The notes: generated from the sequence alone by a model not told the origin. A stretch of DNA of 64,000 nt from Verrucomicrobiia bacterium (GCA_031290985.1 JARLJW010000094.1:2368-66367); one strand, 5' to 3'. Shown: positions 1 to 35,558, counted from the first letter of the stretch. Program-made: numbers and translations.

Positions 1-1845
1 GAACCAGACTTCGCGGTCATGCTGCTTCGCGAGCTGCAGAATTTTCTGCTGCCCGGCCAGGGTCGTGATGCCGCCGTCCGCGCCGGTGAAGTTGAATGGA
101 TCGGTGATTACCTTGTGATAGGCAAAATCGCCGACAATCAAAATGATGTCAGGATCTTTGGCCCAAATCACCTCGGCCACGGCCTTGAATTTTTTATAGT
201 AGTCATCATCCACATGCTCCTCATTGCCCAGCTCGATGTATTTCAAATGGTACGGTGCCGGATGACCGTCCGCGACCCGCTTCCTGCCCCACTCGCTATC
301 CGGCTGGCCGTTGAGGTAATCCATCAAATCACTCATGTCCTGGGGCGACTCATTGATATTGAGATCGGGTATGCCGAGAATTCCAGTGGCTTCGCACAGG
401 TTCAAAAAATCAAAAATGCCCCAGCCGTCCGAAGCATACGGATACCATAGCCCCGCATAAGGCGGGCGTTGCGCCCGCGGCCCGATCATTTGCTTCCAGC
501 GATATTCCTGGCTATTGACCATGCTGCCGCCGTAACGGAGAATCGTGACCCCTTGATTGATTAATCCTTCAGCAACGTCCTTGCGCACCGGCAGATCCTT
601 GAAGCGTCCCCACGCACCCGGCTGCAAGAAAACATACCCCACGGAAACCGACCCGGGCTGCTTGAGCTTGACCACAAATCGTCCGGCCTTGTCGGCGGCA
701 TTCGGGGCCAGCTTGAAATCGAGCCGCTGCCAGTCGCCCGCCTTGAGTTTCAATGATTTTTCGGCATAGACCACCGGGCCTTTTGAGCCTTCCAAGGCGA
801 CAAATATTTCCGTTGGCGCTTGGGCCCGCGCCCAAAGATACCCTTCATAGCTTTTGCCTTTCACAAAATTCATGCCCCAGCGGTTGAGGCTTTGATTCTC
901 GATGCCGATGACACCCGAACCGCCGGCAAAAGTGATTTGCTGGCTTTGCTTGCCGGAGAATGCCCCCGGCGATTCCAAGGAAAGACTTCCCTCGACCGCG
1001 CCCTGCCGGACCGGGCGCCACATGCCGCTCACGCTGTCCGCCGGGCTGTTGCCCGCGTCATATTCAAACGCCACTTTTTCCTGCGCTGTGCCGGTGCCCA
1101 CGGAGAGGTTACGAAACGAAACCTTGTGCTGCCAGATCCGCAGCCCCACCGTGCCGGTTTCGAGCGGATGCTCGGTGTCCTCAAATTGCATCAGGCTCTT
1201 GCCGTTGACGAGCACCTCGAACGCTGTGGCCGTCATGCGGACCGTCAGCTTGATCCATTCGTTGACCGGCACGTCGCACGGCACGCGGCGAATCGGTTCC
1301 CAGTTCTGACGATGGCGGCCAACTACTAAAAATCCGGGCCTTTCGAGCGAAACTTCATAGCCGGCGAACACATCCGCGCCGATGCCGGCCTCGGTGACCT
1401 TGAATATCAGCCCCCCATTGCCGCCGCTTGCCTCCGTCAGCTTTACATCCACGCTGACCTCGCCCGCGGACAACGGCTGACCGTCCCAGACAATTTTTGA
1501 ACCATCGCTGCCAGCACCCTGGATGCTGCCATCGTCCGCCGGCGTCCAGCGGCCCGCGTAAGCCTTGAATCCCTTTAACGGCAGTTGGGCGGCGGGTTCG
1601 GCAAAGCTTTCGCCAAAAATCATCTGGCTGTCCAGGCCGCCATAAATCTCGTGGTTCACATCCTCGATGCAGGCCCCGGTCAGATAGGGCGAATTGGTGT
1701 GCAGCACTTGATCCGCATTCACCGTGATGGTGGCGACTTGCGTCTGACCAAGCGCCGTCAGCCCGCTGAGAATTCCCGCCAGGATGGCCGCCGCTTTTAT
1801 CAAACCGGTTTGCTGGTTCATTATATATTTTTGCTTTGTGTTCAT
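1..1845 (-). CDS. Secreted GH51-like (clan GH-A) glycoside hydrolase with an inserted concanavalin/DUF1080-like beta-sandwich. N-terminal 615 codons only; the C-terminus lies left of the window.
   Basis: Absent from the ORF track because it runs off the window edge. Manual minus-strand translation from ATG 1845 (in-frame ATG also at 1821) gives MNTKQKYIMNQQTGLIKAAAILAGILSGLTALGQTQ...CIEDVNHEIYGGLDSQMIFGESF...LRYGGSMVNSQEYRWKQMIGPRAQRPPYAGLWYPYASDGWGIFDFLNLCEA...YIELGNEE. It stays open to nt 1 and is colinear with the 1855..5247 protein. Confidence 0.75.
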   Translation of the reverse strand, partial: MNTKQKYIMNQQTGLIKAAAILAGILSGLTALGQTQVATITVNADQVLHTNSPYLTGACIEDVNHEIYGGLDSQMIFGESFAEPAAQLPLKGFKAYAGRWTPADDGSIQGAGSDGSKIVWDGQPLSAGEVSVDVKLTEASGGNGGLIFKVTEAGIGADVFAGYEVSLERPGFLVVGRHRQNWEPIRRVPCDVPVNEWIKLTVRMTATAFEVLVNGKSLMQFEDTEHPLETGTVGLRIWQHKVSFRNLSVGTGTAQEKVAFEYDAGNSPADSVSGMWRPVRQGAVEGSLSLESPGAFSGKQSQQITFAGGSGVIGIENQSLNRWGMNFVKGKSYEGYLWARAQAPTEIFVALEGSKGPVVYAEKSLKLKAGDWQRLDFKLAPNAADKAGRFVVKLKQPGSVSVGYVFLQPGAWGRFKDLPVRKDVAEGLINQGVTILRYGGSMVNSQEYRWKQMIGPRAQRPPYAGLWYPYASDGWGIFDFLNLCEATGILGIPDLNINESPQDMSDLMDYLNGQPDSEWGRKRVADGHPAPYHLKYIELGNEEHVDDDYYKKFKAVAEVIWAKDPDIILIVGDFAYHKVITDPFNFTGADGGITTLAGQQKILQLAKQHDREVWF

Positions 1846-1854
1846 GCAGGGAGT

Positions 1855-4800
1855 CTATTTGACAATCCGATAAAATGCCTGCCGGCTGGTCATGGGCACT
1901 GTTATCAAAAATGTCCCATTTGTCAGGACGTAGGACGACACCGCTGCCGGTGTCCAAGATGCACCCGCCCCAAGTTGAGCGGAAGTTTGAAGTGAGTAGC
2001 CGGCAATATAATCCGGCCAGGTGAACGCCAGGGTTTGCCCGGCGGTGGCGATGGATAGTTTGGGCATGGGCAAAGAATTGGGGCCTGAGGCATAATCATC
2101 GGCGATTTGCGCCTTCTTCATGGCTCCACTGTACATCCGGAACTCATCGATTGTGGCCACGCCACAATTGTCGCCCGCATAGGAAGATTTGCCGAGATAG
2201 CTATGCGCATTGACGATCGCCGAAATCGACAGGGTCACATTGCTGTTGATCCCCTGCAGAACGCCATTGGTGTAAACAGCCATGTACCCCGCAAGGGAAT
2301 CCCAAATCAGCACCAAATGGATCTTGCCCTGGTTATCCAATATAGGCGGCACGGCAATATTTTGGACGGAGGCATTGCCGGGGTCGGTGCCTGAGACTTC
2401 AAAATTAATGCCGCCGGGCCCATAACCGCTGTGCGGGGTGAAATCCAGGCAGTAACGGCCATTCCCGGTATCAGAGTTGGTGTCGCCAAAGTCAATCAGG
2501 CGACCCCAGGCACTATTGGTTCCGAACGCGACCCAAAACTCAAGCGTCACCGCCGTATAATTGGTGCTCGTGAGCAGATAAGGCGGCAATTCCGCGTAGT
2601 TTGTTTTCTGATTCAAACCGCCCAAAACCAGATTTCCATTCCCATCAATGCGGGCACCACCGTGAATAATGCCATTGGTAACACCCGGCACAGAATCAAC
2701 AAACTGAGTGGAATTGGCCGGTTCGTTAAAGCTCCAACGATGTGTGAGGGCCACCGGTGAAGCCGGCGGCGGCAGCATCGTTTGTCCTTGAAATGTGATG
2801 GTGGTGACGGAGTTTGCAGCAAACGTATAAGTGGTATTGCCGCCATTAAAATGATGCTGCCAACTGATGTTCGCCGGCACGAATCCCAAAGGAGCTTGCG
2901 CGGTGTTGACTGAACTTTGTAATGCCGCGAGCACCTGGACGGCGGCGGCGGGATTCGTTGGTACGAAACCGGAAATATTGATCGTGGCGGATTCCGGGGA
3001 ACTATTGAGATTGACCACCTGCAACACCAGTTGGCTTCCGTCCTGACTGCCTTCCGCACTGACATCCAAATCATTATTTGGATCGGCAACACTGCTCTGA
3101 ATTTCCAGCGGCTGAAAATTGGCCGCATACATCTGGGTCACATAGCCAGGCGGTTGCAACCAGACGTTGGACTGGTTCAGAAACAACAGCCCCTGATCCC
3201 AGCCGTTGTTGTTCTGGCCGTCGGGCTGCAAACCATTGGCCGACGTGGTGATTGGCAGCCGCCCATCCCGTTCAATCGCGTTGATCGCCAGCGCATTGCC
3301 CAAGGCGCGCCGCTGGGAGTGATTGTTCGCGTTCAGTTCAAACACCACCACCTGGTAATTCGCGCCATTGGCAATCTGCCCCAGCGCCGTGTCATACGAA
3401 AACATCCCCGCCAGACTGTTGTCCGCCCCCGGTCCGTCGGTCCACACATGCACATCAAACCACACCGCCCGGTTATTTGTCTGCGCCAGTTGCATAATCT
3501 GCTGGTGCGTCGCCAGGGTTGTGATGCCCGAATCGGCACCGCCGAAATTGAATGGATCGGTGATGACCGAATGATATGAAAAATCCCCGACGACCAGGAT
3601 GACATTCGTGTCCACGGCCCAAATGGCCTGGGCCACGGCTTGAAATTTCTGGTAATAGGTGTTGTTTACCGTCTCCTCATTGCCAAGTTCCAGGTATTTC
3701 AAGTTGTAAGGTTGTGGATGGCCCTCCGCCAGACGTCGCGCGCCCCAAACCGTGTTCGTTGAGCCGTTGGCGTATTGCATAAAATCCGCCATGTCCTGCG
3801 GCGTCTCGTTGATGTTGAAATCTGGAACCGCAAGAAATCCGGCCGCTTCACAGAAGTTCAGGAAGTCAGGAATGCCCCAGCCATCCGAGGAATACGGATA
3901 CCAGGTGCCGGTGTATGGCGGACGTTGATCACGCGGTCCAATCATGTTTTTCCAGCGGTATCCCGGGGCATTGACCATCGAACCACCGTAGCGTAAAACG
4001 GTGACGCCTTGGTTTATCAACCCCTGCACCACATCCTGGCGCACCGGCAACCCCTGAAAACATCCCCAGGGTCCGGGCTGTAAAAACGCATAACCCACCA
4101 CCACCGAGCCGGGCTGTTTCAGCTTGATGCTAAAACGCCCGTTGGCGTCGCTGGCGGCTGGTGTCAGGTTAAAAGCGAGCTGCTGCCAGTTGTTGCTGGT
4201 CACCAAAAGACTTTGCTCCGCATACACTGCGGATCCGTCCGCACTCTCCAATGACACCCAGAGGGTCGCTGGCGCATCGGCCCGCACATCGAGGGTTCCC
4301 GTGTAAGGCTTGCCGCCAACAAAGTTCAGTCCCCAATGGTTCAGCCCCTGATTGGCCAGGCCAATCGTTCCGGTTCCGCCCGTAAAGGAGAGCGCCTGGC
4401 TTTGCATTCCGACAAACACATTCGTGGTCGCCAACGAACCTTGGCCCGCGGCGGTGCCCGTGACGACCGGACTCCACATTCCGCTGATACTTCCATTTAA
4501 ACCATTGCCCGCGACCTGAAAGGGAATGTTGGTGCCATTGATGAAGAGATTTTGAAACTGTGCGTCCTGCTGCCAGGTGCGCAATCCCACCTGTCCGCTG
4601 GTGAGCGGCTGTTGGGTGTCGGTGTATTGCAAAACACTGTTGCTGTTGATGAGGATGTTGAGCGAGGCATTGGTGTATTGCACCTCCAAGGTGATCCATT
4701 GGCCGATGGGGACGGAGCAGGACACCTGACTTAAGGATGTGAAGTTCTGGACATGCCGCCCCAGCACCAAATAACCCGCCGGTGCCAATGAAATTTCATA

Positions 4801-5247
4801 GCCATTAAAAGCATCCGCACCCACGCCGGCCTGGCTGACTTGGAGAATCAAACCCGCATTGCCCCCGGCGTCGCTCGCGAACCACAACTGCACACGGACA
4901 TCCCCGCCCGTCTGGTTAAATCCATTGTCAACCAGCTTGGGCCCGCTGCCGGCCCCCGCCTGCAGCACCCCGTTTACCGGCAGCCAACTGCCACCGTAGG
5001 CGGTAAAGCCTGCCAGTGAGGTCGACGATGAACCCGGCTCCTGGAAACTTTCACCAAAGATCATCTGACTGTAGAGACCGCCGTATATCTCATGATTCAC
5101 ATCCTCAATACACGCCCCCGTCAGATAAGGCGAATTGGTGTGCAGCACCTGGCGGGAATTGACTGATATGCTTGCCAACTGGGCTTTCGCCTGGCTCGGC
5201 GAGCACACGATCGCCAGGGCGATTGCCAATGCGAAAAGTCTGTTCAT
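1855..5247 (-). CDS. Secreted multidomain GH51-like (clan GH-A) glycoside hydrolase with a beta-sandwich insert, a C-terminal LamG (Laminin_G_3-like) domain and a short C-terminal FYRI module
   Basis: The track ORF 1855..5493 overlaps the GRE gene. ATG at 5247 gives a signal peptide, MNRLFALAIALAIVCSPSQAKAQ. Motifs: CIEDVNHEIYGGLYSQMIFGESFQEP, VLRYGGSMVNAPGYRWKNMIGPRDQRPPY, YLELGNEE (GNE acid/base-like). C-terminal LamG: THRWSFNEPANS...IDEFRMYSGAM. Confidence 0.8.
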   Translation of the reverse strand: MNRLFALAIALAIVCSPSQAKAQLASISVNSRQVLHTNSPYLTGACIEDVNHEIYGGLYSQMIFGESFQEPGSSSTSLAGFTAYGGSWLPVNGVLQAGAGSGPKLVDNGFNQTGGDVRVQLWFASDAGGNAGLILQVSQAGVGADAFNGYEISLAPAGYLVLGRHVQNFTSLSQVSCSVPIGQWITLEVQYTNASLNILINSNSVLQYTDTQQPLTSGQVGLRTWQQDAQFQNLFINGTNIPFQVAGNGLNGSISGMWSPVVTGTAAGQGSLATTNVFVGMQSQALSFTGGTGTIGLANQGLNHWGLNFVGGKPYTGTLDVRADAPATLWVSLESADGSAVYAEQSLLVTSNNWQQLAFNLTPAASDANGRFSIKLKQPGSVVVGYAFLQPGPWGCFQGLPVRQDVVQGLINQGVTVLRYGGSMVNAPGYRWKNMIGPRDQRPPYTGTWYPYSSDGWGIPDFLNFCEAAGFLAVPDFNINETPQDMADFMQYANGSTNTVWGARRLAEGHPQPYNLKYLELGNEETVNNTYYQKFQAVAQAIWAVDTNVILVVGDFSYHSVITDPFNFGGADSGITTLATHQQIMQLAQTNNRAVWFDVHVWTDGPGADNSLAGMFSYDTALGQIANGANYQVVVFELNANNHSQRRALGNALAINAIERDGRLPITTSANGLQPDGQNNNGWDQGLLFLNQSNVWLQPPGYVTQMYAANFQPLEIQSSVADPNNDLDVSAEGSQDGSQLVLQVVNLNSSPESATINISGFVPTNPAAAVQVLAALQSSVNTAQAPLGFVPANISWQHHFNGGNTTYTFAANSVTTITFQGQTMLPPPASPVALTHRWSFNEPANSTQFVDSVPGVTNGIIHGGARIDGNGNLVLGGLNQKTNYAELPPYLLTSTNYTAVTLEFWVAFGTNSAWGRLIDFGDTNSDTGNGRYCLDFTPHSGYGPGGINFEVSGTDPGNASVQNIAVPPILDNQGKIHLVLIWDSLAGYMAVYTNGVLQGINSNVTLSISAIVNAHSYLGKSSYAGDNCGVATIDEFRMYSGAMKKAQIADDYASGPNSLPMPKLSIATAGQTLAFTWPDYIAGYSLQTSAQLGAGASWTPAAVSSYVLTNGTFLITVPMTSRQAFYRIVK

Positions 5248-5296
5248 GCCAATTTTTTGCTGTCGGTTCGCTTTTCCCAACAAGTTATGGCCGGCC

Positions 5297-7504
5297 TCAT
5301 CGAGTCGGTTCTCCATAGATATGGCGGCCAATAATCTGATTCTGATAAGCCGCGTCGAGCTCGCAAAAATAGCCGCTCCAGCCCCAGACACGCACCACGA
5401 GATTCTTGTGCCGTTCAGGATGCAACTGAGCATCTTTGAGGGACTCAACGTTAAGGGTGTTGATCTGAAGCTGCTGGCAACCCACGGCGGCAAAAAGGCG
5501 GATCAGCAAGGCCACTTGATGGATCGCCTCGGGATTTCGGAAAACGGTGTCGGACAATTCCAACGTCAGCGGCCCGCCATTGCAGATCCGTTGATAGTTA
5601 ATCTTGCTGTAACTCTTGAATACACTGAAGGGGCCGCGCACCTGCACCCCGGGCGAAGGTGCGAGGCTGGAACTAAAAAAACCGCCGCTTTTTCTGCCAT
5701 CCGCCGTGGCTCCCACCATCGGCTCGGTCATGGCCTCGTGGCCTTGCGCCAGCCAGACATAGAACATGGCCGAACCGCTCCCGGGTCGGAAAATGCCGCC
5801 GCGGCCATTATTGGGGAAGGATTCGCAAGCATCGGCAAACAGGTCAAATAACTTGACCAGCATGGCATCGGCACGTCCATCGTCATTGCCCACCTTGGGG
5901 GCTTCATCGAAGAGCTTTTTCCGCAGCTCCTCATCCTGCTCGAAGTTTGTATCCAGCGCAGCCAACAGGCGCCGGGCAGACAGTCCGCGCTCATCAAACA
6001 CGAAAGTCTTAACCGCCGCCAATGCGTCCGCCGCATTGGATGAACAGGCGCCGTGAATGCCAAAATTGTTATATTCCAGCCCCTGCGAGAGATCACAACC
6101 ACGTTCCAGGCAGCCGTTCATGAGCACGCTATAGTAAGGAGCCGGCGGAAGCAGCAGACGAGCGGAGCGCTCCGCCAGTTTTGCGACCTGCGAGCGCAGG
6201 TTCGCACCCACCCGGCCCAGTATTTTATCGAAGCCATCGCCGGCGGCCAATCCGGAGCGGATGGCGGAGTCAACCGCCGCTGGCATGGAAACCGCGCCGA
6301 TGTTCACGATTTCCATCCCCCGGCCGGGGATGAGAAATTCCCAGCAAGCCGCCACCGAATAGTCACGGGCATCCGCAAGAGCGTAGCCATGCGCCACCAA
6401 CCCCGGAATAACCACGTCGTCATTTGAGTATTGGGGAAATCCCAGGCCGATCTGGGTTAATTCCGCCGCCAGTTCCAGGAGGTCAAGGCCGGTGTCTTTC
6501 GTGACCCGCAGATTTATTTTCGGATCAATCATCCCCACGCCGCGCGCCACGCGCAGCACCATGTACGTCAATTCATTCACGCCGCTGGAGCCGTCGCGTT
6601 TCACTCCGCCGAGCATGAGCGATTGTCCATTGTCGCCTTGTTGGATGCCGGGATACAAATCACTGTCCTTGTTCAAAGACAGGAAAAATTCAGCCAGCAG
6701 TTGTTCGGCGCCATTTAGATCTACTCGGCCCAAATCCAGGTCCCTTTTTAGATACGGCCACATGTATTGGTCAAATCGTCCGAGCCCGCAGTGATAATGT
6801 CCCCCCAGCCACAAAACGGCATGGCCCAGGCGCAGGGCTTGCAGCGCCTCATGAAAGCTGCTTGCGGGTTGCGCGGGCACGCGATAGAGAATTTTGGCCA
6901 GATCATGGCGCTGATTTCGCGAAGCCTCCTCCGCATAACGACACGCCAAATCCAACACCGCATCAATCGTCTCGATGGCGCCGTCCAGAAATTCAACCGC
7001 CTTTGGATCATCTTTCAGTCTGGCGCGGGAGGCGAGCGCAACGTTGCGCCGGCTTAACAGGCCTTGGGACAGAACCATTTCCCAGTCCGCGCAAATGTTG
7101 CTGATCGGCCCCAGTTCGTGCAGCGCGCAGCCGGAGGCCAGGTTCCGCTGTTGGGATTCGCTGTAAACCGGCGGAACGTTTCCGGTCGTCCGCGTAAAGA
7201 CGATTCGCTCCTCCGGGGGAATGACAATTTTCTGGGCCTCGCACATGCGCCGGATCAGGCGCGCGGCCCGCTGCGGCCAGGAGAGCTGTTCGGCGTCGCA
7301 TTCGGCAAGCAAATCCACCTCCGCCGAAGTGCGATATTGCTTGTAATGCCCGTCCCGCAACGCCTGCTTCATTTCCACCAACCGCGGTTCCAATTCAAAC
7401 CGGTTGCGGGCTCTTGAATGGTGGCTTAATTCCACTCCATCAATGCCCGTAACTGGAGGTTTGAACCTTGGATGGGTGATGGGCTCGTTTAAGACGTTAT
7501 TCAT
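5297..7504 (-). CDS. Glycyl radical enzyme (PFL superfamily, Cys-x-Glu eliminase/dehydratase-like), 735 aa
   Basis: C-terminal glycyl-radical loop NLVVRVWGWSGYFCEL (Gly708, codon 5381..5383). Thiyl loop YSVAACWEFLIPG (Cys387, codon 6344..6346; Glu389). The start ATG overlaps the activase stop (ATGA at 7501..7504). Confidence 0.9.
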   Translation of the reverse strand: MNNVLNEPITHPRFKPPVTGIDGVELSHHSRARNRFELEPRLVEMKQALRDGHYKQYRTSAEVDLLAECDAEQLSWPQRAARLIRRMCEAQKIVIPPEERIVFTRTTGNVPPVYSESQQRNLASGCALHELGPISNICADWEMVLSQGLLSRRNVALASRARLKDDPKAVEFLDGAIETIDAVLDLACRYAEEASRNQRHDLAKILYRVPAQPASSFHEALQALRLGHAVLWLGGHYHCGLGRFDQYMWPYLKRDLDLGRVDLNGAEQLLAEFFLSLNKDSDLYPGIQQGDNGQSLMLGGVKRDGSSGVNELTYMVLRVARGVGMIDPKINLRVTKDTGLDLLELAAELTQIGLGFPQYSNDDVVIPGLVAHGYALADARDYSVAACWEFLIPGRGMEIVNIGAVSMPAAVDSAIRSGLAAGDGFDKILGRVGANLRSQVAKLAERSARLLLPPAPYYSVLMNGCLERGCDLSQGLEYNNFGIHGACSSNAADALAAVKTFVFDERGLSARRLLAALDTNFEQDEELRKKLFDEAPKVGNDDGRADAMLVKLFDLFADACESFPNNGRGGIFRPGSGSAMFYVWLAQGHEAMTEPMVGATADGRKSGGFFSSSLAPSPGVQVRGPFSVFKSYSKINYQRICNGGPLTLELSDTVFRNPEAIHQVALLIRLFAAVGCQQLQINTLNVESLKDAQLHPERHKNLVVRVWGWSGYFCELDAAYQNQIIGRHIYGEPTR

Positions 7505-8256
7505 ACGACTCTCACTTTCAGACCTGCGGATTTAAAGCAGGACAAGTTGATGTTTGACCTCTCAGATTCATCAAAAGTCGGCTCGAAAATCATGCCGCAC
7601 GCGGCATATTTGGCGCCGGCAGCCTGGTTATAAGGAAGCAAATCTATCCGCTGCAAACCGGGCATGCCCGCGACCGTCCGGGCAATCGCGGACAAATTAG
7701 CCCCGGTATCGGTCACTCCGGGAATCAACGGCACGCGAATGACAAAGGGAACGCCAAGCTCATTCAAGACGCGGAGGTTCCTTAAGATCGGCTGGTTGTC
7801 CACGCCCGTATGCGCCAGATGCGCGACGGGATCAATGAGCTTCAAGTCAAAGTAAACGAGCTGTGATTTGGCGGCGACCTTGCGAAAACTGTCCTCCTCG
7901 GCATATCCGGAGGTATCCAGCAAAACATGGACCCCCGCTAATTGATCAATCACCTCCGCAAGGAAGTCCGCTTGCGCCAGAGGTTCGCCCCCGGAAAAGG
8001 TCACGCCGCCTTCACCCACGCGCAGCCAAGCGGCCAGACTGTTGAGGCGCACGGCCAATGCCCGGGAACTGAAGGTCACCCCCGCCAAACGTTCGCCGGC
8101 GCTCCCGTGCAGAACCTGCGGTGCAGGCGACTGGCCTTCGGGATTGTGGCACCAGGAGCAGCGCAACGGACAGCCTTTCAGGAATACCGTCACCCGCAGA
8201 CCGGGTCCGTCATGCACGGCAAATTCCTTGATGTCAAACACAACGCCGGTGAGCAT
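7501..8256 (-). CDS. Glycyl-radical enzyme activating protein (radical SAM, short PflA-like form)
   Basis: Motifs FAVHDGPGLRVTVFLKGCPLRCSWCHNPE (CX3CX2C) and GGVTFSGGEPL. ATG 8256 (MLTGVVFDIKEF) is preferred; upstream ATG 8301 is also in frame but overlaps the binding-protein gene. There is no second Cys-rich ferredoxin-like block. Confidence 0.88.
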   Translation of the reverse strand: MLTGVVFDIKEFAVHDGPGLRVTVFLKGCPLRCSWCHNPEGQSPAPQVLHGSAGERLAGVTFSSRALAVRLNSLAAWLRVGEGGVTFSGGEPLAQADFLAEVIDQLAGVHVLLDTSGYAEEDSFRKVAAKSQLVYFDLKLIDPVAHLAHTGVDNQPILRNLRVLNELGVPFVIRVPLIPGVTDTGANLSAIARTVAGMPGLQRIDLLPYNQAAGAKYAACGMIFEPTFDESERSNINLSCFKSAGLKVRVV

Positions 8257-8285
8257 TTGAATTAGCAATAAAGCAAACCGAATTG

Positions 8286-9302
8286 TTATTGGCGCAGCCA
8301 TTGCTTCCAGTTTTGTTCGTATTGCTGCACGTCATCCTTCGTGACCGGGGGCAGTTCCGAATAATCCAGCACGTTCGCCGGATTTTTCCCCAGGATGACT
8401 TTGTCGGCCAGCAACTCCACCGAACGGACGCCCCAGCGGTAGGTCTGCTGGGCGTAAAGTTTCTGGACGACGCCCTTGGTCAGATAGGGCAATTCGGCCG
8501 GCAAGGCATCCATCGCCACAATCTTGACCTTGCCCGGCTCCCATTTCAGCAAAGCATCGGTAAACAAGCTCCACGAACCAATCATCGCCCAGCCATCAAT
8601 GTCGGGATTGGCCGTCTGCACCTCCTCGATTTTGGCGGCGGCATCCTGGGGAACTTCTTTGCTGTAATAGACGCCGCGAATGGTCAGGTTGGGATAATTC
8701 GTGGCTTCATCCAAGGCGCCTTTGATTCGATTCTGAATGTTGCGGGCATTCTGATTTCCGCCCGGGATGGCCACCACGTGTTTTCCCGGCCCCAACACCG
8801 CCGCCAGTTCCCGCATGATGATATGGCCGCATTCGATGTCATCCGTGCCATGATAACAAAAGCGCTTGCTGGCGGGCGCATCGCTGTCAAAGCACATGAC
8901 CGCCACGCCTTGCCCAACGGCCTTGTCAATGGCCGGCGTCAGCGTCTCGGCTTCGCTGCAACTCACGCTGATTCCGTCCACGCCCTGTAAAACCAATTGC
9001 TCGATGTTCTCGACCTGCTTCTGCGCGTCGTCTTCATTGGGCGTGCGCCAGAGCACGGTGATTTTCACGCCCAGTTTTTTGCCCAGCTCGGCGGCCGCAT
9101 CCTCGGCCCCCACCCGCGCCGCCTGAAAAACCGGATTGGACTGGCTTTTGGCCACCAGGGCGAAAGTGTATTCGGACTTTTTCGCGGTTGGTCCCGCGGC
9201 TTCGCCGGCAGCCGGCCCATTTTTCTTTTGATCGCAGCCGGTGATAAACGAAACGGCCAGACCCGCAATTGCGATGGTTTTGAAGAATTGTTGTATTTTC
9301 AT
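8286..9302 (-). CDS. Sugar ABC transporter substrate-binding lipoprotein (RbsB/Peripla_BP_4-like)
   Basis: Lipobox AVSFITGC. Typical periplasmic sugar-binding fold sequence (FALVAKSQSNPVFQAA...DGISVS...). Start overlaps the permease stop (ATGA 9299..9302). Confidence 0.85.
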   Translation of the reverse strand: MKIQQFFKTIAIAGLAVSFITGCDQKKNGPAAGEAAGPTAKKSEYTFALVAKSQSNPVFQAARVGAEDAAAELGKKLGVKITVLWRTPNEDDAQKQVENIEQLVLQGVDGISVSCSEAETLTPAIDKAVGQGVAVMCFDSDAPASKRFCYHGTDDIECGHIIMRELAAVLGPGKHVVAIPGGNQNARNIQNRIKGALDEATNYPNLTIRGVYYSKEVPQDAAAKIEEVQTANPDIDGWAMIGSWSLFTDALLKWEPGKVKIVAMDALPAELPYLTKGVVQKLYAQQTYRWGVRSVELLADKVILGKNPANVLDYSELPPVTKDDVQQYEQNWKQWLRQ

Positions 9303-10483
9303 GGTGTTGGTCGTGATTGTTCAATTTGAGAGGCACCTTCCTGTCGAGATTCCTTGGCGGCCAGCGCACTCCGCGCCATGCGTTTTTCGCGCAACGTGTC
9401 ATTGATGCGGTCCAGCAGCACCGCCAGGACGATGACGGCTCCGATGATGATTTGACTGTAGTTTTGGTCAATGTTGAGGATGATGATGCCGTTGTTGATC
9501 ATCTGGATGATCAGCGCCCCCAGCAATGCGCCCAAGGCCGTGCCGCGACCGCCGACGAGGCTCGCTCCGCCCACCACCGCCGCGGCGATCACATCCAATT
9601 CATATCCTTTGCCCGCATCCGACGAAGCCGATCCATAATATCCCAGCATGATCATCGCCGCGACGCCGGCGGCAAGTCCGCTGAACGCATAGACCTTTAC
9701 CTTGACGCGGTTCACGGGCAGCCCGCTGAACAGCGACGCTTGTTCGTTGCCACCCACGGCAAAAATGTGGCGACCTGTCACGGCGTGCTTGAGATACCAT
9801 CCGGCTAGGGCAGTGACACCCAGCATGATGGCCAGCGGCACGGGATAGAGATTGGCTCCCTGCCAGTTGATTTCGTAACGGATCAAGCCGTCGGTGAATT
9901 GCGCGGGGAAATGCGTATAGGCCTGGGCCTTCGTCATCACGAACGCCACGCCGCGGTAGATGGCCATGGTTCCCAAGGTGATAACGAACGGGTGCACCCG
10001 CAGAAAGACGACCCCCAGCCCGTTCAACAGACCGCACAATGTTCCGGTTCCGAGACAAATAGCAATCGCCCCCGGCACCACCCAAAAGGGAGACGCCCCG
10101 GCCCCCGGCCCCCGGGGCCCAAAGTGGTTCAGAAACATGGCGCCACAAACGGCCGCCAGGCAATACATGGAGCCCACCGACAAATCTATGCCGCCGGTGA
10201 TGATGACGAAAGTTGCGCCCACCGCCATGATGGCAAAAAATGAAGTGTTCTTGGCCAGATTGCCCAGATTGTCCGCGCGGAGAAATTTGTTCACGGTGAC
10301 GATCCCACCCGTGTCCCGATTAGGCACCTCGAGCGTGCCGCAAAAAAGGGAAAGCAACAATCCCAACGCCAGCACAACCCCCAAAAGTCCGGTCTCCTTA
10401 AACCGTGGATGACGTGCAGCCGTCACGGTCGACAACCCTTGGGAGGATTCTGCATTGAGCAAGGCTGGCTGGTCGGTTTTCAT
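9299..10483 (-). CDS. Sugar ABC transporter permease (RbsC/BPD_transp_2 type)
   Basis: 394 aa, multi-TM, with motifs such as GGIDLSVGS and GGRGTALGALLGALII typical of ribose/xylose-family permeases. Confidence 0.85.
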   Translation of the reverse strand: MKTDQPALLNAESSQGLSTVTAARHPRFKETGLLGVVLALGLLLSLFCGTLEVPNRDTGGIVTVNKFLRADNLGNLAKNTSFFAIMAVGATFVIITGGIDLSVGSMYCLAAVCGAMFLNHFGPRGPGAGASPFWVVPGAIAICLGTGTLCGLLNGLGVVFLRVHPFVITLGTMAIYRGVAFVMTKAQAYTHFPAQFTDGLIRYEINWQGANLYPVPLAIMLGVTALAGWYLKHAVTGRHIFAVGGNEQASLFSGLPVNRVKVKVYAFSGLAAGVAAMIMLGYYGSASSDAGKGYELDVIAAAVVGGASLVGGRGTALGALLGALIIQMINNGIIILNIDQNYSQIIIGAVIVLAVLLDRINDTLREKRMARSALAAKESRQEGASQIEQSRPTP

Positions 10484-10486
10484 GGT

Positions 10487-12031
10487 TTAGGCAACCAACA
10501 CGTTTTCTGGTATCGCCTGCAGGCTGGGGACATTTTGGCCGGCCATGAGTTGCATTACCCGCTCTTGCGTTGCTTCCGCGCGATCCAGCCTTCCCGCAAT
10601 CCGACCATTGCGCATCACAATCACCCGGGTGCTGAGGTTGAGCACTTCCGGCAACTCCGAGGAGATCATCAAGACCGCCAGCCCGGCCGCTGCCAGTTCG
10701 TCAATGAGCCGGTGAATCTCCGCTTTGGCCCCCACATCCACGCCCCGGGTCGGCTCGTCCAGAATCAGGATGCGACATTGGCGGGCGAGCCACTTGGCGA
10801 GGACAAGCTTTTGCTGGTTGCCTCCGGAAAGTGTTTGTGCCGAAACCTGCGGAGAAGCCGCCTTCACCTGAAGTTTCTGGAAAAAATCGGCGATCACGCT
10901 GCGTTCTTTCGCGAGGCGGATGACCCCATGCCGGCTTAACCGGTCCAGCGAGGAAAGGGTGATGTTGCTGCCGCATTCCATGCCCAGGACCAGCCCTTGT
11001 TTTTTGCGATCCTCGCTTACCAACCCGATGCCCAGGGCCATGGCATCGCGCGGGCAGCGCACGGCGGCTTTCCGTCCGGCCACAAAAACCCCGCCGGTCA
11101 TTCTCGCATCCAGCCCAAAGATTCCCAGGGCGACTTCGCTGCGTCCAGCGCCCACCAACCCCGCCATGCCCACGACTTCGCCGGCGCGCAATGAAAAACT
11201 GATGCTGCGAAACTTGCCCGGCGATGAAAGCTCCTCCACGCGCAAACATTCCGGCCCCGGGGCGCGTTCCACATGCTCCGGAAAAAGCTTCTGCCAGGTG
11301 CGGCCGATCATCAAGCGGACCAAGTCCCCCTCGTTGGTCTGCGCCAGCGGCATCGTGGCCACATGCTGGCTGTCACGCATCACGGTCACCGTGTCGCAAA
11401 AGCGGAAAATTTCGTCCATGCGGTGCGAGACATAGATGATGGTTGCCCCGCGTTTGCGCAGCGTGCCGATCAATTCCTCCAGCCGCCGCGCTTCCGATGC
11501 CGACAGGGAACTCGTGGGCTCGTCCAGCACGAAAATATCCGCGCCCGTGGCCAGCGCGGCCGCGACTTGTACCATCTGCATGCGCCCGGGACTCAAGCGC
11601 CCCAATTCTTCACGCACGTCGCAATCCGCCCCGATGGCGTCGAGATGCGATTGGGCCCGCTCTTCGAGCCGCCGCCAATCCACCCGGCCAAAACGCCGCG
11701 GCAAATCGGACAGGCAGACGTTCTCCGCAACGCTCAGGTTGGGACAAAAGGAAAGCTCTTGATGAACGATGGCCACCCCGGCGCGTTGGGCTTCGCGCGG
11801 CGAGCGGAAATGCCGGGCCACGCCCTTGATTTCCACCCGGCCTTCGTCCGGACGATGTATTCCCGCCAAGATTTTCCCGAGCGTGCTCTTGCCCGCGCCA
11901 TTCTCACCCATCAAGGCGTGGCAGCTTCCGCCCGCCACGTCAAAGCTTACGTTTTGCAGCGCGACAGTTCCCGGAAACCGTTTGCTGATGTTGTAAAAGC
12001 GAACGCTGGGAATGAAAGGCTCGACACTCAA
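10487..12031 (-). CDS. Sugar ABC transporter ATP-binding protein (duplicated ABC domains, RbsA/MglA type)
   Basis: Walker A GENGAGKST, signatures LSPGRMQ/LSGGNQQK, Walker B FVLDEPTSSL/LILDEPTRGVD. The start codon at 12031 is TTG. Confidence 0.9.
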   Translation of the reverse strand: MSVEPFIPSVRFYNISKRFPGTVALQNVSFDVAGGSCHALMGENGAGKSTLGKILAGIHRPDEGRVEIKGVARHFRSPREAQRAGVAIVHQELSFCPNLSVAENVCLSDLPRRFGRVDWRRLEERAQSHLDAIGADCDVREELGRLSPGRMQMVQVAAALATGADIFVLDEPTSSLSASEARRLEELIGTLRKRGATIIYVSHRMDEIFRFCDTVTVMRDSQHVATMPLAQTNEGDLVRLMIGRTWQKLFPEHVERAPGPECLRVEELSSPGKFRSISFSLRAGEVVGMAGLVGAGRSEVALGIFGLDARMTGGVFVAGRKAAVRCPRDAMALGIGLVSEDRKKQGLVLGMECGSNITLSSLDRLSRHGVIRLAKERSVIADFFQKLQVKAASPQVSAQTLSGGNQQKLVLAKWLARQCRILILDEPTRGVDVGAKAEIHRLIDELAAAGLAVLMISSELPEVLNLSTRVIVMRNGRIAGRLDRAEATQERVMQLMAGQNVPSLQAIPENVLVA

Positions 12032-12054
12032 GATTGCACAAGGAAATGGCCGGG

Positions 12055-13101
12055 TTATGGATTCGGCGGGGGCGGCAGGATTTTGGGCTGCGCCGCCCGC
12101 TCAAACGTATCCACCGGCACGACGATGCGTTTGCCGCTCGAATGAGATTTAATTGCGGCCATCGCCAGTTGCAACGCCCGCCGTCCGGCCCGGGCATGTA
12201 CCGGCGGTTGTTTGCCGGCTTTGAAGGCCTCCAGCACCGCATCCATGTGCCGGTCAAACGTGAGATAAAAATCACGGTCGCGGTCATTGAAATAACCGGA
12301 CTGCCAAACCTCGGCGGTTTCGGATCCCGCCGCATTAAATGTATAGCGACGCACCGTATCCTCGATGAGAATCCGGCCTTTCGTCCCATTTATTTCCACG
12401 CGGTGCGTGTCAGGATAGGCATAGGAAGAATCATAGGAGCCGACCAGGCTGCCAACCGCGCCGTTCGCAAAATGCAGTGCCAGCACCAGGGTGCGATAAG
12501 TTCCCTTGTGCGTTTTATCGGTCATTTGCGCCATGACCGAGTCAATGGGCCCGCAGAGAAACTCCAACATGTCAAACGCATGGCACTGGGTCTCGAACAG
12601 GTTGTTGAATGGATGGCTGGTGCCGCCCTCGCCTCCGAAGCGCCAGGTGGCAAAGGTCAAATCTCCCAGCCTGCCTTTTTGAATGGCCTCGTGCGCCAAA
12701 GCCACCGGCCGGGCATAGTGATGATTGAAATTGATGCCAAAGAACAGTTTGCGCTTCGCCGCTGCCTGCAAGAGCTGATCCGCTTCTTTCAAGTCAAACA
12801 CCAGCGGCTTTTCAACAAATAAAGGCACGCCCGCCCGGATCACTTCCATGGTGGGCTGAAAATGGCCATCATTGGGCAGCGAGAGAAAAGCCAGATCGGG
12901 CTTCTCTTCCGCCAGCATTTCCGGGATGTTCGTATAGGCGCGAACCCCAAACTGCGCGGCGCGGGCCTTCGTTTTTTCCGGGGTGCGGCCGGCAATCGCG
13001 CGGAAATCCACATCGGGACGCTGCGACAAAATGCGGGCGTGCTGAAGTCCCCATCCACCCGCGCCAATCAGGACGGCTTTTATTTTGGCTGGAGCGCTCA
13101 T
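12055..13101 (-). CDS. Gfo/Idh/MocA family oxidoreductase
   Basis: N-terminal Rossmann motif KAVLIGAGGWGLQHA followed by ...VFVEKPL. The ATG overlaps the stop of the upstream dehydrogenase (ATGA 13098..13101). Confidence 0.85.
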   Translation of the reverse strand: MSAPAKIKAVLIGAGGWGLQHARILSQRPDVDFRAIAGRTPEKTKARAAQFGVRAYTNIPEMLAEEKPDLAFLSLPNDGHFQPTMEVIRAGVPLFVEKPLVFDLKEADQLLQAAAKRKLFFGINFNHHYARPVALAHEAIQKGRLGDLTFATWRFGGEGGTSHPFNNLFETQCHAFDMLEFLCGPIDSVMAQMTDKTHKGTYRTLVLALHFANGAVGSLVGSYDSSYAYPDTHRVEINGTKGRILIEDTVRRYTFNAAGSETAEVWQSGYFNDRDRDFYLTFDRHMDAVLEAFKAGKQPPVHARAGRRALQLAMAAIKSHSSGKRIVVPVDTFERAAQPKILPPPPNP

Positions 13102-14129
13102 TGTTCAATAATTACCTTGCCGGTTTCACCACTGAAGAACAGCTCGAAGGATTTTTGGATTTCATCCACCCCAAAACGATGGGTGATGATCTGGTTGAGA
13201 TAGGAGCGATGCTGCGTGAGCCGGCGAAGGTTGGCCGGCAATTCATCAAAACGGAAGTATTCGCTGCCCACCACGCTCCGCTCCGGCGCGATGATGTCGG
13301 GTGAAACTTTCAACGCGATGCCTTCCCCATGCCCGACGCAAATCAGCGACCCCCGCTGGGCCAGCGCGCGATGGCCTTCCTCCCGCGCGGCCTGTTTGCC
13401 ACTTGTGTCCACCGCCATGTCAGCCGCATCAGCGCCATGCGCCTTCAGCCCGTCCTTGATGGAGCCTTTGGCAACATTGATCGGGAGACCGCCGAGTTTC
13501 TCCGCCAGCTTGAGACGGTAGGGAACAATGTCCGTCAAATAGACCTTCACCTGCTGGCCAAGAATAATCTTCGCCATCATCAAAACCCCCAGCCCAATCG
13601 GGCCGGCTCCGAGAACCAGCAGCGACTCGATGTCCGGCCGCATCAACTGGCAACGCTCAATCGCGTGGCCGCCCGTACCCATGATGTCGAGCAGCAGCGT
13701 GCCCTCCGTGGCCGAAAATTCCTTGGGCACCGGGAAAAAAATGCTTTCATGAACCAATTCATACTGCCCATATCCGCCGTCGCGATTGAAACCCATGTCG
13801 CCGCGCTTTTGCAGGCATTGATTGGTGAAGCCCAGCCGGCAGGAGCGGCAGTGCCCGCAAAAATCCATCAAGAAAACCACGCCCGGCGTGCCAACGGGAA
13901 TGCGCGTATCGGGTCCGACGGCAACCACCGTGCCCGCCGCCTCATGCCCGGGGGTGGTGGGTGTTCCGTCAAAAAATTGCGGCCTTTCCGAGCCGCAAAG
14001 CGCGTTGGCCTGGACGCGCATCAGGAGCTGGCCCGGACCTGGCTGCGGAACCGGTTTTTCGCCGAATTTGATTTGTTTGTTCCCGGCAAAGACCGGAACC
14101 CTGCATTGGGATGGTATGGATTGTGTCAT
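13098..14129 (-). CDS. Zn-dependent alcohol/polyol dehydrogenase (MDR family, sorbitol/threonine dehydrogenase-like)
   Basis: Motifs CGSERPQ...GHEAAGTVVAVG, CGHCRSCRLG (structural Zn) and GAGPIGLG (NAD). The track start 14168 is TTG; the first ATG is 14129 (MTQSIPSQ). Confidence 0.85.
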   Translation of the reverse strand: MTQSIPSQCRVPVFAGNKQIKFGEKPVPQPGPGQLLMRVQANALCGSERPQFFDGTPTTPGHEAAGTVVAVGPDTRIPVGTPGVVFLMDFCGHCRSCRLGFTNQCLQKRGDMGFNRDGGYGQYELVHESIFFPVPKEFSATEGTLLLDIMGTGGHAIERCQLMRPDIESLLVLGAGPIGLGVLMMAKIILGQQVKVYLTDIVPYRLKLAEKLGGLPINVAKGSIKDGLKAHGADAADMAVDTSGKQAAREEGHRALAQRGSLICVGHGEGIALKVSPDIIAPERSVVGSEYFRFDELPANLRRLTQHRSYLNQIITHRFGVDEIQKSFELFFSGETGKVIIEQ

Positions 14130-14245
14130 GCAAAAAAATTGAATGTGGAATTTGAATTTGCCGGCCAACTAGTTGGATTGCTGGGTGTCACCGCCGTAAA
14201 ACCCAGGGTGAATATTACATGTTTTCATTGCGCATGTTTTAACTG

Positions 14246-15136
14246 CTACAGATGCGAAGTGCTGTGGCTGATCATCCATTGGATGTCGCGGTCAGTGGGA
14301 AACGTGCCGCTAAAACCGGTATTAGGATTGGTATATTTGACCGACTGACTGGTGGTGGCTTCCAGCCATTTGTGCAACTCTGAATGGCCGTCCGCAAAAG
14401 TGAGGGAATTGGCCTGGTTATGAAAACTGCCCGGCAAATCACTTCCCCACTTGATGGTCGTCGTCGGATTGATGACCAGCCAGCCGTCGTTGATGCTATC
14501 CGGATGCTCATCCGTGAACACCCAAAGATCCACCGGCGCGGGAGAATTCATGTCTGTCGTCTTATTGTAGTAATGATAGGAAGCCGTAAAGTCATTCGGC
14601 GAGGGCGGAGGCGAACCGCTGCCGTATCCGCCCCCGATAAAAGCATTCAGCGAATTGCTGCGCAGTCGGGGAACCTGACTCCCGCCTTCGGAACACAAAT
14701 AGACATCCCCTGGACATTTATAAACGCCGAGATTCTGGGTCAGAGGCCATAGCAGTCCATTTTTAATCGTGTCAACATTGGTGTTGTCCGTATTGTCAGG
14801 CGCCCAGCTCTCGGTGCCCAACACCCAATTGGGAGACCCCATCCCCGGCATCATCGTATTCCGGCAACAGCGCTCATGATCATCACCGGAATACATTATC
14901 CAGGCCAGACCGAGCTGCTTGTGATTGCTCAAACACTGTATCTGTTGTGCCTTAATCTTGGCCTTGCTCAAGGCGGGCAGCAGCATCGCGGCCAGAATCG
15001 CAATGATGGCAATGACGACAAGCAGCTCAATCAAGGTAAAAGCGGCAAACCCATGGGCCGCAAACCTGTCCCGCCGTCGGCTCTTCGCCCTAACTTCCTG
15101 CCCGCCGGGCCTTTTGCAAGTGCCTGAGATATTCAT
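14246..15136 (-). CDS. DUF1559 / H-X9-DG protein with a prepilin-type N-terminal cleavage/methylation motif
   Basis: Motifs [28 protein letters not shown] and, at the C-terminus, [13 protein letters not shown] (an exact H-X9-DG). The track start 15238 is TTG; the first ATG is 15136. Confidence 0.8.
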
Positions 15137-15335
15137 TTTCAGTGATTCGTTCGTTTGTAATTCTGGCCGATCAATACCTGCTGTGAGCTGCATGCTGATA
15201 TCACCTGCCCCCATCCCGGCACCTTGTGCTCCATCCAAAAATCAGCAAAAATAATTTAGCGTGTTTTTGCATGGCGATTACGCGGTTGGTTTGGTGTTTT
15301 GCTTGGGTATATCCTCCCTCATTATTCCTGTTCAT

Positions 15336-15364
15336 CCATGAGTTTTAGCGGCTGGCATTTTGAG
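15336..15364. promoter_or_regulatory. Conserved intergenic box 1 (CCATGAGTTTTAGCGGCTGGCATTTTGAG). A second copy lies at 26433..26461.
   Basis: 25 of 29 nt are identical to 26433..26461. Both copies are preceded 17-18 nt upstream by ATCCTCCC and followed about 125 nt later by box 2. Confidence 0.35.
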
Positions 15365-15489
15365 AATCCTTGCCAAGGCGTATTTTGCGGCGCATTTTTA
15401 AACAATCCGGCATTTTTCCTTTAGACAATATGGAAAACTTGTAGTTTAATGGCTGCATCACTTAACTCATAAATCTGCTTCCCAAATCT

Positions 15490-15510
15490 TTTTTAAGATT
15501 GGTTACGACA
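15490..15510. promoter_or_regulatory. Conserved intergenic box 2 (TTTTTAAGATTGGTTACGACA). A second copy lies at 26585..26605.
   Basis: About 16-17 of 21 nt match TTTTTAAGACTGGTTTCGCAT at 26585..26605, at the same spacing from box 1 in both loci. Confidence 0.3.
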
Positions 15511-15597
15511 GATTTGCGGGTTTTTAGATTTGGCTCAGAAATTAGACGCCTGCTGAAATTGCTTTGGAACGAATGACGGCTAAATGATTGCCCACGC

Positions 15598-27836: not shown

Positions 27837-27895
27837 CCAATGAGGAAACAATTTCGATATTCGTCATCCCCCCGTCGCCCTTTGCGTGAGAACAT

Positions 27896-29347: not shown

Positions 29348-29354
29348 GATCGTT

Positions 29355-32977: not shown

Positions 32978-33000
32978 AGGATGTGATTCCAATTACACGA

Positions 33001-34152: not shown

Positions 34153-34236
34153 GGTTGTTTTTGGCAGTGGGTTACTTGGGGCAATGGTAAACACCCCGAC
34201 TGTGTTTGCGAATAAAATGTTTGTCGTGAATTTTCA

Positions 34237-34935
34237 TCACCGCTGGCCGTAGGTCGCCTTCGGACCGTGCTTGCGCATAAAATGCTTGTCCAGCAGCACG
34301 CCCTGCATCGGCTTGATCTTGGGGTTGATCCGCAGCGTCTCGCTGTTCAGGCGAGCAATGAACTCCAGCACGCTCGCGTTATGCACCGCATCATTCACGT
34401 CTTTGCCCCAGGTGAACGGGCCATGGCTCGCCACCAGCACCGCCGGATGCTGCCGCGGGTCAAACTTCAGCTTCTTGAACGTCTCCACGATCACATCGCC
34501 GGTGTTCGCCTCGTAATCGTTTTTGATTTCCGCCGCCGTCAGCTTGCGCGTACAGGGCACGTCGCCATACCAGTAATCCGCCTGCGTCGTGCCATAGGCC
34601 AGCAATGGCTGGCACGCCTGCGCCCATGACGTCGCAAACAAGCTGTGCGTATGCACCACCCCGCCGATCCCCTTGAACGCGCGATAAAGAATAAGATGCG
34701 TGTCTGTGTCCGAACTGGGCTTGAGCTTGCCCTCCACCACCTCGCCCGTCGCCAGCGACACGCAGACCATGTGCTGCGGCTTCATCTCTGAATATGGGAC
34801 CCCGCTCGGCTTGATGACCATGACGCCGCGCTCGCGGTCCACCGCGCTCGCATTCCCCCACGTCTGGATGACCAACCCTTCGGCCACCAGGTCCAAATTC
34901 GCCTTGCAGACTTCAGCTTTTAATTTTTCCAACAT
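34237..34935 (-). CDS. araD: L-ribulose-5-phosphate 4-epimerase
   Basis: Near-colinear with E. coli AraD as recalled: [14 protein letters not shown]...[22 protein letters not shown]...KPSSDTDTH...GGVVHTHS. Confidence 0.92.
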
Positions 34936-34950
34936 AAAAATTTATTTTGA

Positions 34951-34975
34951 CCACGGATGAACACAGATAAACACG
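34951..34975. repeat. Left arm of a perfect 25-bp inverted repeat (CCACGGATGAACACAGATAAACACG)
   Basis: It is the exact reverse complement of 35527..35551. The sequence type resembles REP-like intergenic elements common in PVC genomes. Confidence 0.9.
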
Positions 34976-34984
34976 CATGAAATT

Positions 34985-35518: not shown

Positions 35519-35526
35519 TTTTTATC

Positions 35527-35551
35527 CGTGTTTATCTGTGTTCATCCGTGG
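35527..35551. repeat. Right arm of the perfect 25-bp inverted repeat (CGTGTTTATCTGTGTTCATCCGTGG)
   Basis: Exact reverse complement of 34951..34975. Confidence 0.9.
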
Positions 35552-35558
35552 TTAAAAA

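Follow-up and report, generated by a model that had tools for sequence, protein, structure and literature searches.

The window analysed here is a 64,000-nucleotide stretch of DNA from a Verrucomicrobiia bacterium (GCA_031290985.1 JARLJW010000094.1:2368-66367), and its minus strand carries two overlapping genes, one coding for a glycyl radical enzyme (GRE, 5297-7504) and the other for a radical S-adenosylmethionine (SAM) activase (7501-8301). Judged from their sequences, the two proteins almost certainly form a functional GRE system. They represent a new family within a known superfamily, distinguished by its breadth, a remodelled active site, a carbohydrate gene context, and the loss of a domain from the activase. 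The GRE reading frame is open throughout and codes for 735 aa. It contains a Cys loop, AACWEF (residues 385-390, 6335-6352 on the minus strand), with the thiyl Cys387, Trp388, and Glu389, and a glycyl radical loop, RVWGWSGYF (residues 705-713, 5366-5392 on the minus strand), with Gly708. Translation placed Cys387 and Gly708 321 aa apart. The Pfam models PFL-like (PF02901, 308 bits, E 1.9e-91) and Gly_radical (PF01228, 63 bits) both scored above their gathering thresholds. Alignment to solved structures, by phmmer and by profile, matched Cys387-x-Glu389 to Cys433-V-Glu435 of glycerol dehydratase (GDH) and Cys431-x-Glu433 of PflD, and Gly708 to the radical Gly of RVAG*Y/RVAGYS in GDH (Gly763) and PflD. 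The radical Gly of GREs lies in an RVxG[FWY] loop, and this fingerprint was found here with an aligned Cys, a barrel and Gly domain, and an adjoining radical-SAM activase. These results agree with an earlier reading of the same DNA made from the sequence alone (the sequence-only reading), which had recognised the 735-aa GRE by its Cys387 and Gly708 hallmarks and their 321-aa spacing. That reading had also considered that the two residues might not be catalytic, or that the gene might be a decayed fragment. The alignments place both residues on catalytic positions, and the gene is intact, with both motifs conserved in the 120 homologues listed (66-91% identity).

The AlphaFold2 model of the GRE (pLDDT 84.7, pTM 0.88) predicts residues 1-32 to be disordered. 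A Foldseek search with the model gave TM scores of ~0.8 and 22-25% identity to CutC, GDH, propanediol dehydratase (PD), and PflD. Its closest structural neighbours are thus 1,2-eliminases and PflD, a sugar isomerase. The identity to any solved GRE was likewise 22-25%. GDH was the best sequence match in the PDB (E 5.5e-67; single-sequence score 230 bits, profile score 427 bits), and PflD was the top profile match (438 bits). Since CutC, GDH, PD, and PflD are nearly tied as the closest solved relatives in both the sequence and the fold searches, no single characterised protein can serve for functional transfer. The protein shares the ten-stranded GRE barrel, the C-x-E motif, and the RVxG loop with the B12-independent GDH of C. 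butyricum (1r8w/1r9d) and with PD (5i2a), but it is only 25% identical to them and ~52 residues shorter, and has Trp flanking the radical Gly and after the Cys. In alignment numbering, ~46 of the 52 residues missing relative to GDH (787 aa) lie N-terminal to the Cys, where the loss had been located before. The loop LYPGIQQGD (residues 283-291, window ~6632-6658) is strongly conserved, yet it has the lowest confidence of the folded part (pLDDT <50), and in the model it may be a mobile substrate-gating loop.

The curated NCBIfam models, whose equivalog cut-offs are ~994-1150 bits, did not assign the GRE to any characterised class. The isofunctional models for PFL, CutC, HypD, HpsG, HpfG, IAD, and HPAD gave 51-258 bits against cut-offs near 1000. 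Both pyruvate formate-lyase (PFL) cut-offs were missed (TIGR01255, 51 vs. 994 bits; NF007437, 258 vs. 1109 bits), as were the CutC, HypD, HpsG/HpfG, IAD, and HPAD equivalogs (134-240 vs. 1000-1150 bits). TIGR01774, the model of the PFL2/glycerol dehydratase subfamily, reached 294.5 bits against a cut-off of 678.2. Placement with TIGR01774 and TIGR01255, which the sequence-only reading had recommended, thus leaves the protein outside the characterised isofunctional groups and bears out its proposal of an uncharacterised GRE clade. A full-text search of the accessible literature did not find a paper on this clade or on any arabinose-linked GRE. In public databases the homologues are named 'formate C-acetyltransferase' or 'pyruvate formate lyase family protein', and the activase has a PflA-like architecture, both of which would suit a pyruvate or 2-ketobutyrate formate-lyase. 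However, this function is effectively refuted, as the GRE has a single Cys where PFL has a Cys-Cys pair, falls far short of TIGR01255, matches PFL among the weakest of the PDB entries (E 1e-13), and lies in a context of sugar import rather than fermentation. The absence of the Cys-Cys pair and the weak PFL match indicate that, on sequence grounds, the public name 'pyruvate formate-lyase' is wrong.

The family can be recognised by RVWGWS together with AACWEF in proteins of 640-740 aa. All 120 homologues listed keep RVWGWS[GA]YF and AACWEF (RVWGWSGYF in 118 of the 120), and they are 650-755 aa long except for one outlier of 824 aa. The short length is a family-wide trait. A search of 1.8 billion representatives clustered at 50% identity found ~40 further full-length clusters with both motifs (40-50% identity, 640-710 aa), and beyond the family it returned a sister group with RVWGF and CWE[PT], followed by ordinary GREs of ~800 aa. 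The sister GREs (P0163-P0167, P0172-P0173, P0178-P0179, P0195-P0196, and others) are ~690-765 aa long and carry RVWGFSAYF, several of them with CWE[PTI]. On the sequences compared, Trp at Gly-1, Gly+1, and Cys+1 is the family signature, and Trp before the radical Gly appears to mark a wider, unexplored GRE branch. The Trp residues around the radical Gly had been noticed before and are indeed present. They are not a peculiarity of the window protein, because they are invariant in the family and Trp before the Gly also occurs in RVWG[FY] GRE clusters. A pattern scan with one genome per species confirmed at least 589 loci in at least 589 species genomes from about nine phyla (Verrucomicrobiota, Planctomycetota, Lentisphaerota, Chloroflexota with many Anaerolineales, Acidobacteriota, Bacillota, Bacteroidota, Spirochaetota, and Synergistota). 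The members in Chloroflexota, Acidobacteriota, Bacillota, Bacteroidota, Spirochaetota, and Synergistota show that the family is not limited to the Planctomycetota-Verrucomicrobiota-Chlamydiota (PVC) group. Nearly all carrier genomes are metagenome-assembled, with no named cultured isolate among the matches listed, and carriers are abundant among soil, peat, groundwater, and rumen anaerobes.

The activase gene overlaps the GRE gene by 4 bp (ATGA). With the start as listed, the ATG at 8301, it would share 16 bp with the binding-protein gene. The true start of the activase is probably the ATG at 8256, giving 251 aa, since the homologous sequences are 251 aa long. The protein contains the CX3CX2C radical-SAM cluster motif CPLRCSWC (Cys44/48/51, 8149-8172 on the minus strand) and beyond it only Cys235 and Cys255. 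It was aligned end to end with the E. coli PFL activating enzyme (residues 8-217 of PflA, 3c8f/3cb8), with which it shares the radical-SAM core only, and the spacer from the cluster motif to GGEP is 52 aa long and free of Cys. These features agree with the earlier description of an activase that has CX3CX2C and two further Cys and is without a ferredoxin-like insert. The label 'PflA-like' holds for its architecture but not for its descent. TIGR02494, the model of ferredoxin-bearing activases of the PflC type, was passed with 200 bits in two stretches (cut-off 174.35), even though the 8-Cys insert of these activases is missing, whereas the PflA model TIGR02493 was failed (155.8 vs. 231.75 bits). 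Ten of 58 family-linked activases have spacers of 82-89 aa with 8-10 Cys in the pattern CxxCxxCxxxC...CxxCxxCxxxCP. Their partner GREs are 44-49% identical to the window GRE and come from Bacillota, Bacteroidota, Lentisphaeria, and gut or rumen Thermoguttaceae, and the insert is absent from all activases whose partner GRE is at least 56% identical to it. Because deep-branching members keep the 8-Cys insert at the position where the window activase is without it, the sequences indicate that the activase is not PflA by descent and that the auxiliary-cluster domain was lost inside the family. According to a 2026 review (PMC13450708), nearly all activases apart from those of PFL and ribonucleotide reductase (RNR) have the auxiliary ferredoxin-like domain, the absence of which is reported only for these two, and its function is given as unknown. 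Related activases with and without the domain offer a natural comparison for its long-debated role. If the assignment is correct, this would be the first GRE system other than PFL and RNR shown to work with an activase shorn of the domain. Reconstitution is the main bottleneck of GRE discovery (PMC13450708), and it may prove easier with a small activase that has a single cluster.

The GRE and activase genes are the last two of a minus-strand operon in which the genes from a Zn dehydrogenase to the GRE overlap or abut. Immediately upstream of the activase, 8286-9302 codes for a periplasmic monosaccharide-binding protein of the CUT2 type (Pfam Peripla_BP_4) with a lipoprotein-type signal. Its nearest solved proteins include 2qvc/3c6q, which we take to be the glucose/xylose-binding protein of T. 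maritima, and 6sw4, an 'arabinose binding protein', and its orthologue cluster occurs in 30 related loci. The transporter is completed by an ATP-binding cassette (ABC) permease of the ribose/galactofuranose type (9299-10483; Pfam BPD_transp_2, NCBIfam ribose permease 202 bits) and a sugar ABC ATPase with a double ABC domain (10487-12031), which scored 494-550 bits with the AraG, XylG, and RbsA models, below their cut-offs. Further upstream are a Gfo/Idh/MocA oxidoreductase (12055-13101; Pfam, with an IolG-like model best at 126 bits, well below its cut-off), around which the gene order is repeated in one related locus (L010), and a Zn-dependent alcohol/polyol dehydrogenase (13098-14168; Pfam ADH_N and ADH_zinc_N), whose cluster is found in 12 related loci. 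All of these genes are on the minus strand. On the same strand, 49 bp downstream of the GRE, 1855-5247 codes for a secreted GH51-like protein that starts with MNRLF and a signal peptide and combines 3keto-disac_hyd, ASD1, Alpha-L-AF_C, and LamG domains (Pfam), and 15 loci have a member of this family downstream of the GRE. A promoter and terminator scan of 1500-15800 gave counts equal to the shuffled expectation.

The open reading frames of 86 related loci were clustered, and the 52 loci of at least 20 kb were taken as a long set. The activase adjoins the GRE in at least 58 of the 86 loci. In the long set the activase was called in 42 loci, an undercount as antisense reading frames displaced some calls, while a sugar transporter (CUT2 ABC or major facilitator superfamily, MFS) was found in 35, arabinose-linked genes (AraA, AraB, AraD, GH127, GH51-like, or mutarotase) in 26, and a dehydrogenase in 11. 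Further gene calls in related loci agreed with this picture. Three recurrent arrangements were seen. PVC loci have an ABC transporter, the activase, and the GRE, followed by a GH127 and/or GH51-like gene, and Bacteroidota have AraC, glycosidases, a mutarotase, an MFS transporter, the activase, and the GRE. Anaerolineales have LacI, an ABC transporter, 1-4 MtaA/CmuA-like methyltransferases, a corrinoid protein, the activase, and the GRE, followed often by AraA and, in varied combinations, by M24, Zn dehydrogenase, kinase, and AraD genes. The survey of homologue neighbourhoods that had been suggested for PVC genomes thus showed a sugar-transporter and arabinose context within and beyond this group. 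This context, which the sequence-only reading had missed, is the best functional clue. Among 130 neighbours left unlabelled, a Pfam census in search of pectinases, kinases, aldolases, or other recurrent families found none with more than 2-3 members. Two details of the loci may be added. In Anaerolineales (L014-L023, L052, L055, L066), the region at ~5-9.2 kb directly upstream of the activase and GRE holds distant MtaA/CmuA-family paralogues with the URO-D fold and an MtgC/MtbC-like corrinoid protein. In Thermoguttaceae, 2-3 tandem gene pairs (~462 aa and ~78 aa), which have no Pfam match on record, stand beside the activase (L004, 13.5-16.9 kb; L011, 13.8-19 kb).

Some of these neighbours would also suit a dehydratase of the hydroxyproline type, whose substrate, hydroxyproline or a compound derived from it, would be set free from arabinosylated plant glycoproteins (extensins or arabinogalactan proteins, for example). 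GH127, present in related loci, includes enzymes that act on beta-L-arabinofuranosyl-hydroxyproline oligosaccharides, and a prolidase-like M24 gene occurs in 7 loci. GREs are also known in the catabolism of N-methyl-hydroxyproline, where they are paired with corrinoid demethylases. However, the HypD model was missed by a wide margin (240 bits, cut-off 1100), the CUT2 transporter is of a sugar type and not one for amino acids or peptides, and pyrroline-5-carboxylate reductase or other proline-pathway genes were not recurrent in the 130-neighbour census. We consider this function extremely unlikely.

The active site was mapped by profile-to-PDB alignment. In GDH, His164 protonates the leaving hydroxyl. 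This residue, which is also His in PD and PflD, is replaced by Asn136, and GDH Asp447 (PflD Asp445) by Asn401. The GDH pocket residue Tyr640 corresponds to Gly577 and Gln636 to Arg573. Asn136 and Arg573 are invariant in the family, Asn401 and Gly577 invariant or nearly so, and Glu389 is retained. Three polar conserved motifs, DSDLYPGxQQGDNGQS, DPKINLR, and NGGPLT, have no counterpart in the solved enzymes. The substitutions suggest a pocket that is larger, polar, and chemically unlike that of every characterised GRE, with a polarity as expected for sugar binding. As the acid residues are missing and Arg573 is invariant, the sequences point to a leaving group or a substrate unlike that of any known GRE. 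The C-S lyases IslA (isethionate sulfite-lyase), IseG, and HpsG offer a partial parallel, as, judged from conserved spacing, Asn136 would correspond to IslA Gln193 and Arg573 to IslA Arg678, which would give two of the three sulfonate anchors. However, the third anchor, Arg189 of IslA, is Gly132 in the window GRE, the C-S lyase equivalogs scored far below their cut-offs, and sulfite-handling genes are not nearby.

The same residues bear on a small-diol dehydratase, which would act on glycerol, 1,2-propanediol, or ethylene glycol formed in the fermentation of pentoses or deoxy sugars. GDH is the best PDB sequence match and the C-x-E motif is present, and the fermentation of arabinose or xylose can yield ethylene glycol (PMC11255663). 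Nevertheless, this function is very unlikely. The acid His, the Asp447, and the Tyr640 of GDH are exchanged for Asn, Asn, and Gly, TIGR01774 fell far below its cut-off, and the GRE gene is co-transcribed with a dedicated monosaccharide importer. Moreover, neither the labelled neighbour families nor the 130 unlabelled neighbours showed a recurrent aldehyde dehydrogenase. Unlike GDH and PD, the locus has an activase without the ferredoxin-like domain and no microcompartment: a tblastn search of the whole 64 kb with PduA and EutN queries gave nothing better than E=2, and no shell Pfam family was found in the annotated neighbours, in line with the absence of shell genes reported by the sequence-only reading.

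By analogy with its nearest relatives, the window GRE is most likely a C-O-cleaving eliminase or isomerase that acts on an imported sugar derivative. All GRE eliminases and isomerases retain the C-x-E motif (PMC13450708). The motif had earlier been taken as the arrangement of eliminases, and it is present, but the isomerases that also have it show that it is not specific to them. Whole GRE clades are still unassigned, and just two GREs, each of gut bacterial origin and each with a phosphorylated sugar as substrate, are known to act on carbohydrates (PMC13450708). These two are PflD and YbiW (8id0, 8yjo, 8id7), the lyases that cleave the C-O bond of 1,5-anhydromannitol-6-P and 1,5-anhydroglucitol-6-P. 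They share C-x-E with the window GRE, and their ring C-O cleavage (PMC13450708) is the closest model for its possible chemistry. The two systems differ in that PflD has His and Asp where the window GRE has Asn, and in that the window operon has an ABC importer and no kinase, so its substrate would presumably be unphosphorylated rather than a 6-phosphate.

In the proposed mechanism, the single [4Fe-4S]/SAM site of the activase would, by homology, take a hydrogen from Gly708, and the resulting glycyl radical would make a thiyl radical on Cys387. Next, a carbinol carbon of the substrate would lose a hydrogen to the thiyl radical as its hydroxyl gave up a proton to Glu389. The ketyl radical would then expel a substituent of the neighbouring carbon (hydroxyl, alkoxy, or ring oxygen) in a C-O cleavage like that of the 1,2-eliminases or isomerases, and the product radical would regain a hydrogen from Cys387 to give a deoxy-keto product. 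Hydrogen abstraction at a carbinol carbon with elimination of the neighbouring C-O bond is favoured because of the C-x-E motif and the nearest relatives. From the gene context, the substrate would be monosaccharide-sized and imported via the co-transcribed CUT2 ABC transporter. Such a substrate would probably originate from the same plant polymers as L-arabinose and galactose (for instance arabinan, arabinogalactan, or arabinoxylan side chains), and the adjoining Zn-dependent and Gfo/Idh/MocA dehydrogenases might process the keto product. Because sugar-import genes are the usual neighbours of the family, often together with arabinose-utilisation genes, it probably performs a new anaerobic step of plant-sugar breakdown. 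Taken as a whole, the proposal of a working GRE system from a widespread and previously undescribed family that cleaves a C-O bond in an imported monosaccharide-sized substrate has, in our estimate, an even chance of being right.

Several observations weigh against this proposal. The general acid of the dehydratases and PflD and its partner, GDH His164 and Asp447, are replaced by Asn136 and Asn401, so that a hydroxyl or alkoxy leaving group would be without its usual proton donor, and His238 is a possible substitute. Arg573 stands, as mapped via spacing, at the sulfonate-anchor position of the C-S lyases and hints at an anionic substrate, for which a decarboxylase or an ester or sulfate eliminase would fit equally well. 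Arabinose-linked genes were found in only half of the long loci. In addition, radical chemistry is not normally needed for reducing sugars.

Arg573 and the position of AraA together raise the possibility of a uronate decarboxylase, which would remove C6 of D-galacturonate by a Kolbe-type radical loss, as in the arylacetate-decarboxylase GREs, and deliver L-arabinose to AraA-AraB-AraD. In several Chloroflexota operons, among them L015, L022, L023, L026, L052, and L066, AraA is directly downstream of the GRE. As these operons carry no glycosidase, the imported compound itself must become the AraA substrate. Galacturonate and L-arabinose have a like configuration, which is established chemistry, the decarboxylase HPAD also has C-x-E, Arg573 is invariant while the usual acid His is missing, and the corrinoid methyltransferases of the same operons could handle the methyl groups of pectin. 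However, polygalacturonase, pectate lyase, and pectin esterase were not recurrent, and UxaC was found in only 2 of the 130 unlabelled neighbours. CUT2 binding proteins bind mostly neutral sugars, and the GRE is nearest to eliminases and isomerases in both sequence and structure, with HPAD among its weakest matches. On balance, this decarboxylation is distinctly unlikely.

Galacturonate decarboxylation to L-arabinose is also one form of a bolder proposal, that the family carries out a sugar reaction new to radical enzymes. The other form is the radical elimination of methanol, or of a different alkoxy or ester group, from a plant sugar that carries such a modification. The O-methyl sugars of arabinogalactan or xylan side chains, 4-O-methyl-glucuronate among them, would be examples. 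We regard this proposal, with its two forms combined, as rather unlikely. If true, alkoxy elimination would explain the 3-4 MtaA-like methyltransferases and the corrinoid protein directly upstream in Chloroflexota operons, and it would solve the anaerobic cleavage of sugar alkyl methyl ethers. Two other substrates were considered and rejected. A cyclitol or O-methyl-inositol was suggested by weak IolG, IolM, and rhizopine-binding-protein matches, but these were far below their cut-offs and the arabinose genes would be left unexplained. 3,6-Anhydrogalactose, suggested by GH127 and sulfatases in a few loci, was dismissed as most genomes are of terrestrial or freshwater origin.

GREs, whose radical is oxygen-sensitive, catalyse the chemically hardest steps of anaerobic metabolism. 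A family that is located in plant-sugar loci and has a distinct active site offers a tangible way to find an anaerobic carbohydrate reaction that is still missing, and it is relevant to carbon turnover in anoxic soil and peat.

Outside the GRE operon, the window contains further genes of carbohydrate metabolism. A complete canonical L-arabinose cluster at 31139-46142 on the minus strand, 25-40 kb from the GRE operon and on the same strand, codes for a ROK regulator, a xylose-isomerase-like TIM protein, AraA, a GH51-like arabinofuranosidase, GH127, an FGGY kinase, AraD, a mutarotase, and an SSF symporter. A second sugar module at 26649-30881 consists of an XylR/AraC-type regulator (26649-27836, plus strand), a GH27 alpha-galactosidase-like protein (27896-29347), and the window's second double-domain sugar ABC ATPase (29355-30881), and a GH88 gene is located at 47192-48481. 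The GH27 family also holds beta-L-arabinopyranosidases, and the GH27/ATPase module and the GH88 gene are together reminiscent of arabinogalactan-protein degradation. In addition, 20660-26194 on the minus strand codes for a giant protein of 1844 aa with five LamG (Laminin_G_3) stretches and several Ig-like and Big_2 domains, and 14246-15238 for a pseudopilin-like protein with an N-terminal methylation motif. A LamG gene and a gene of the latter type also precede the GRE operon in two related loci (L003 and L005).

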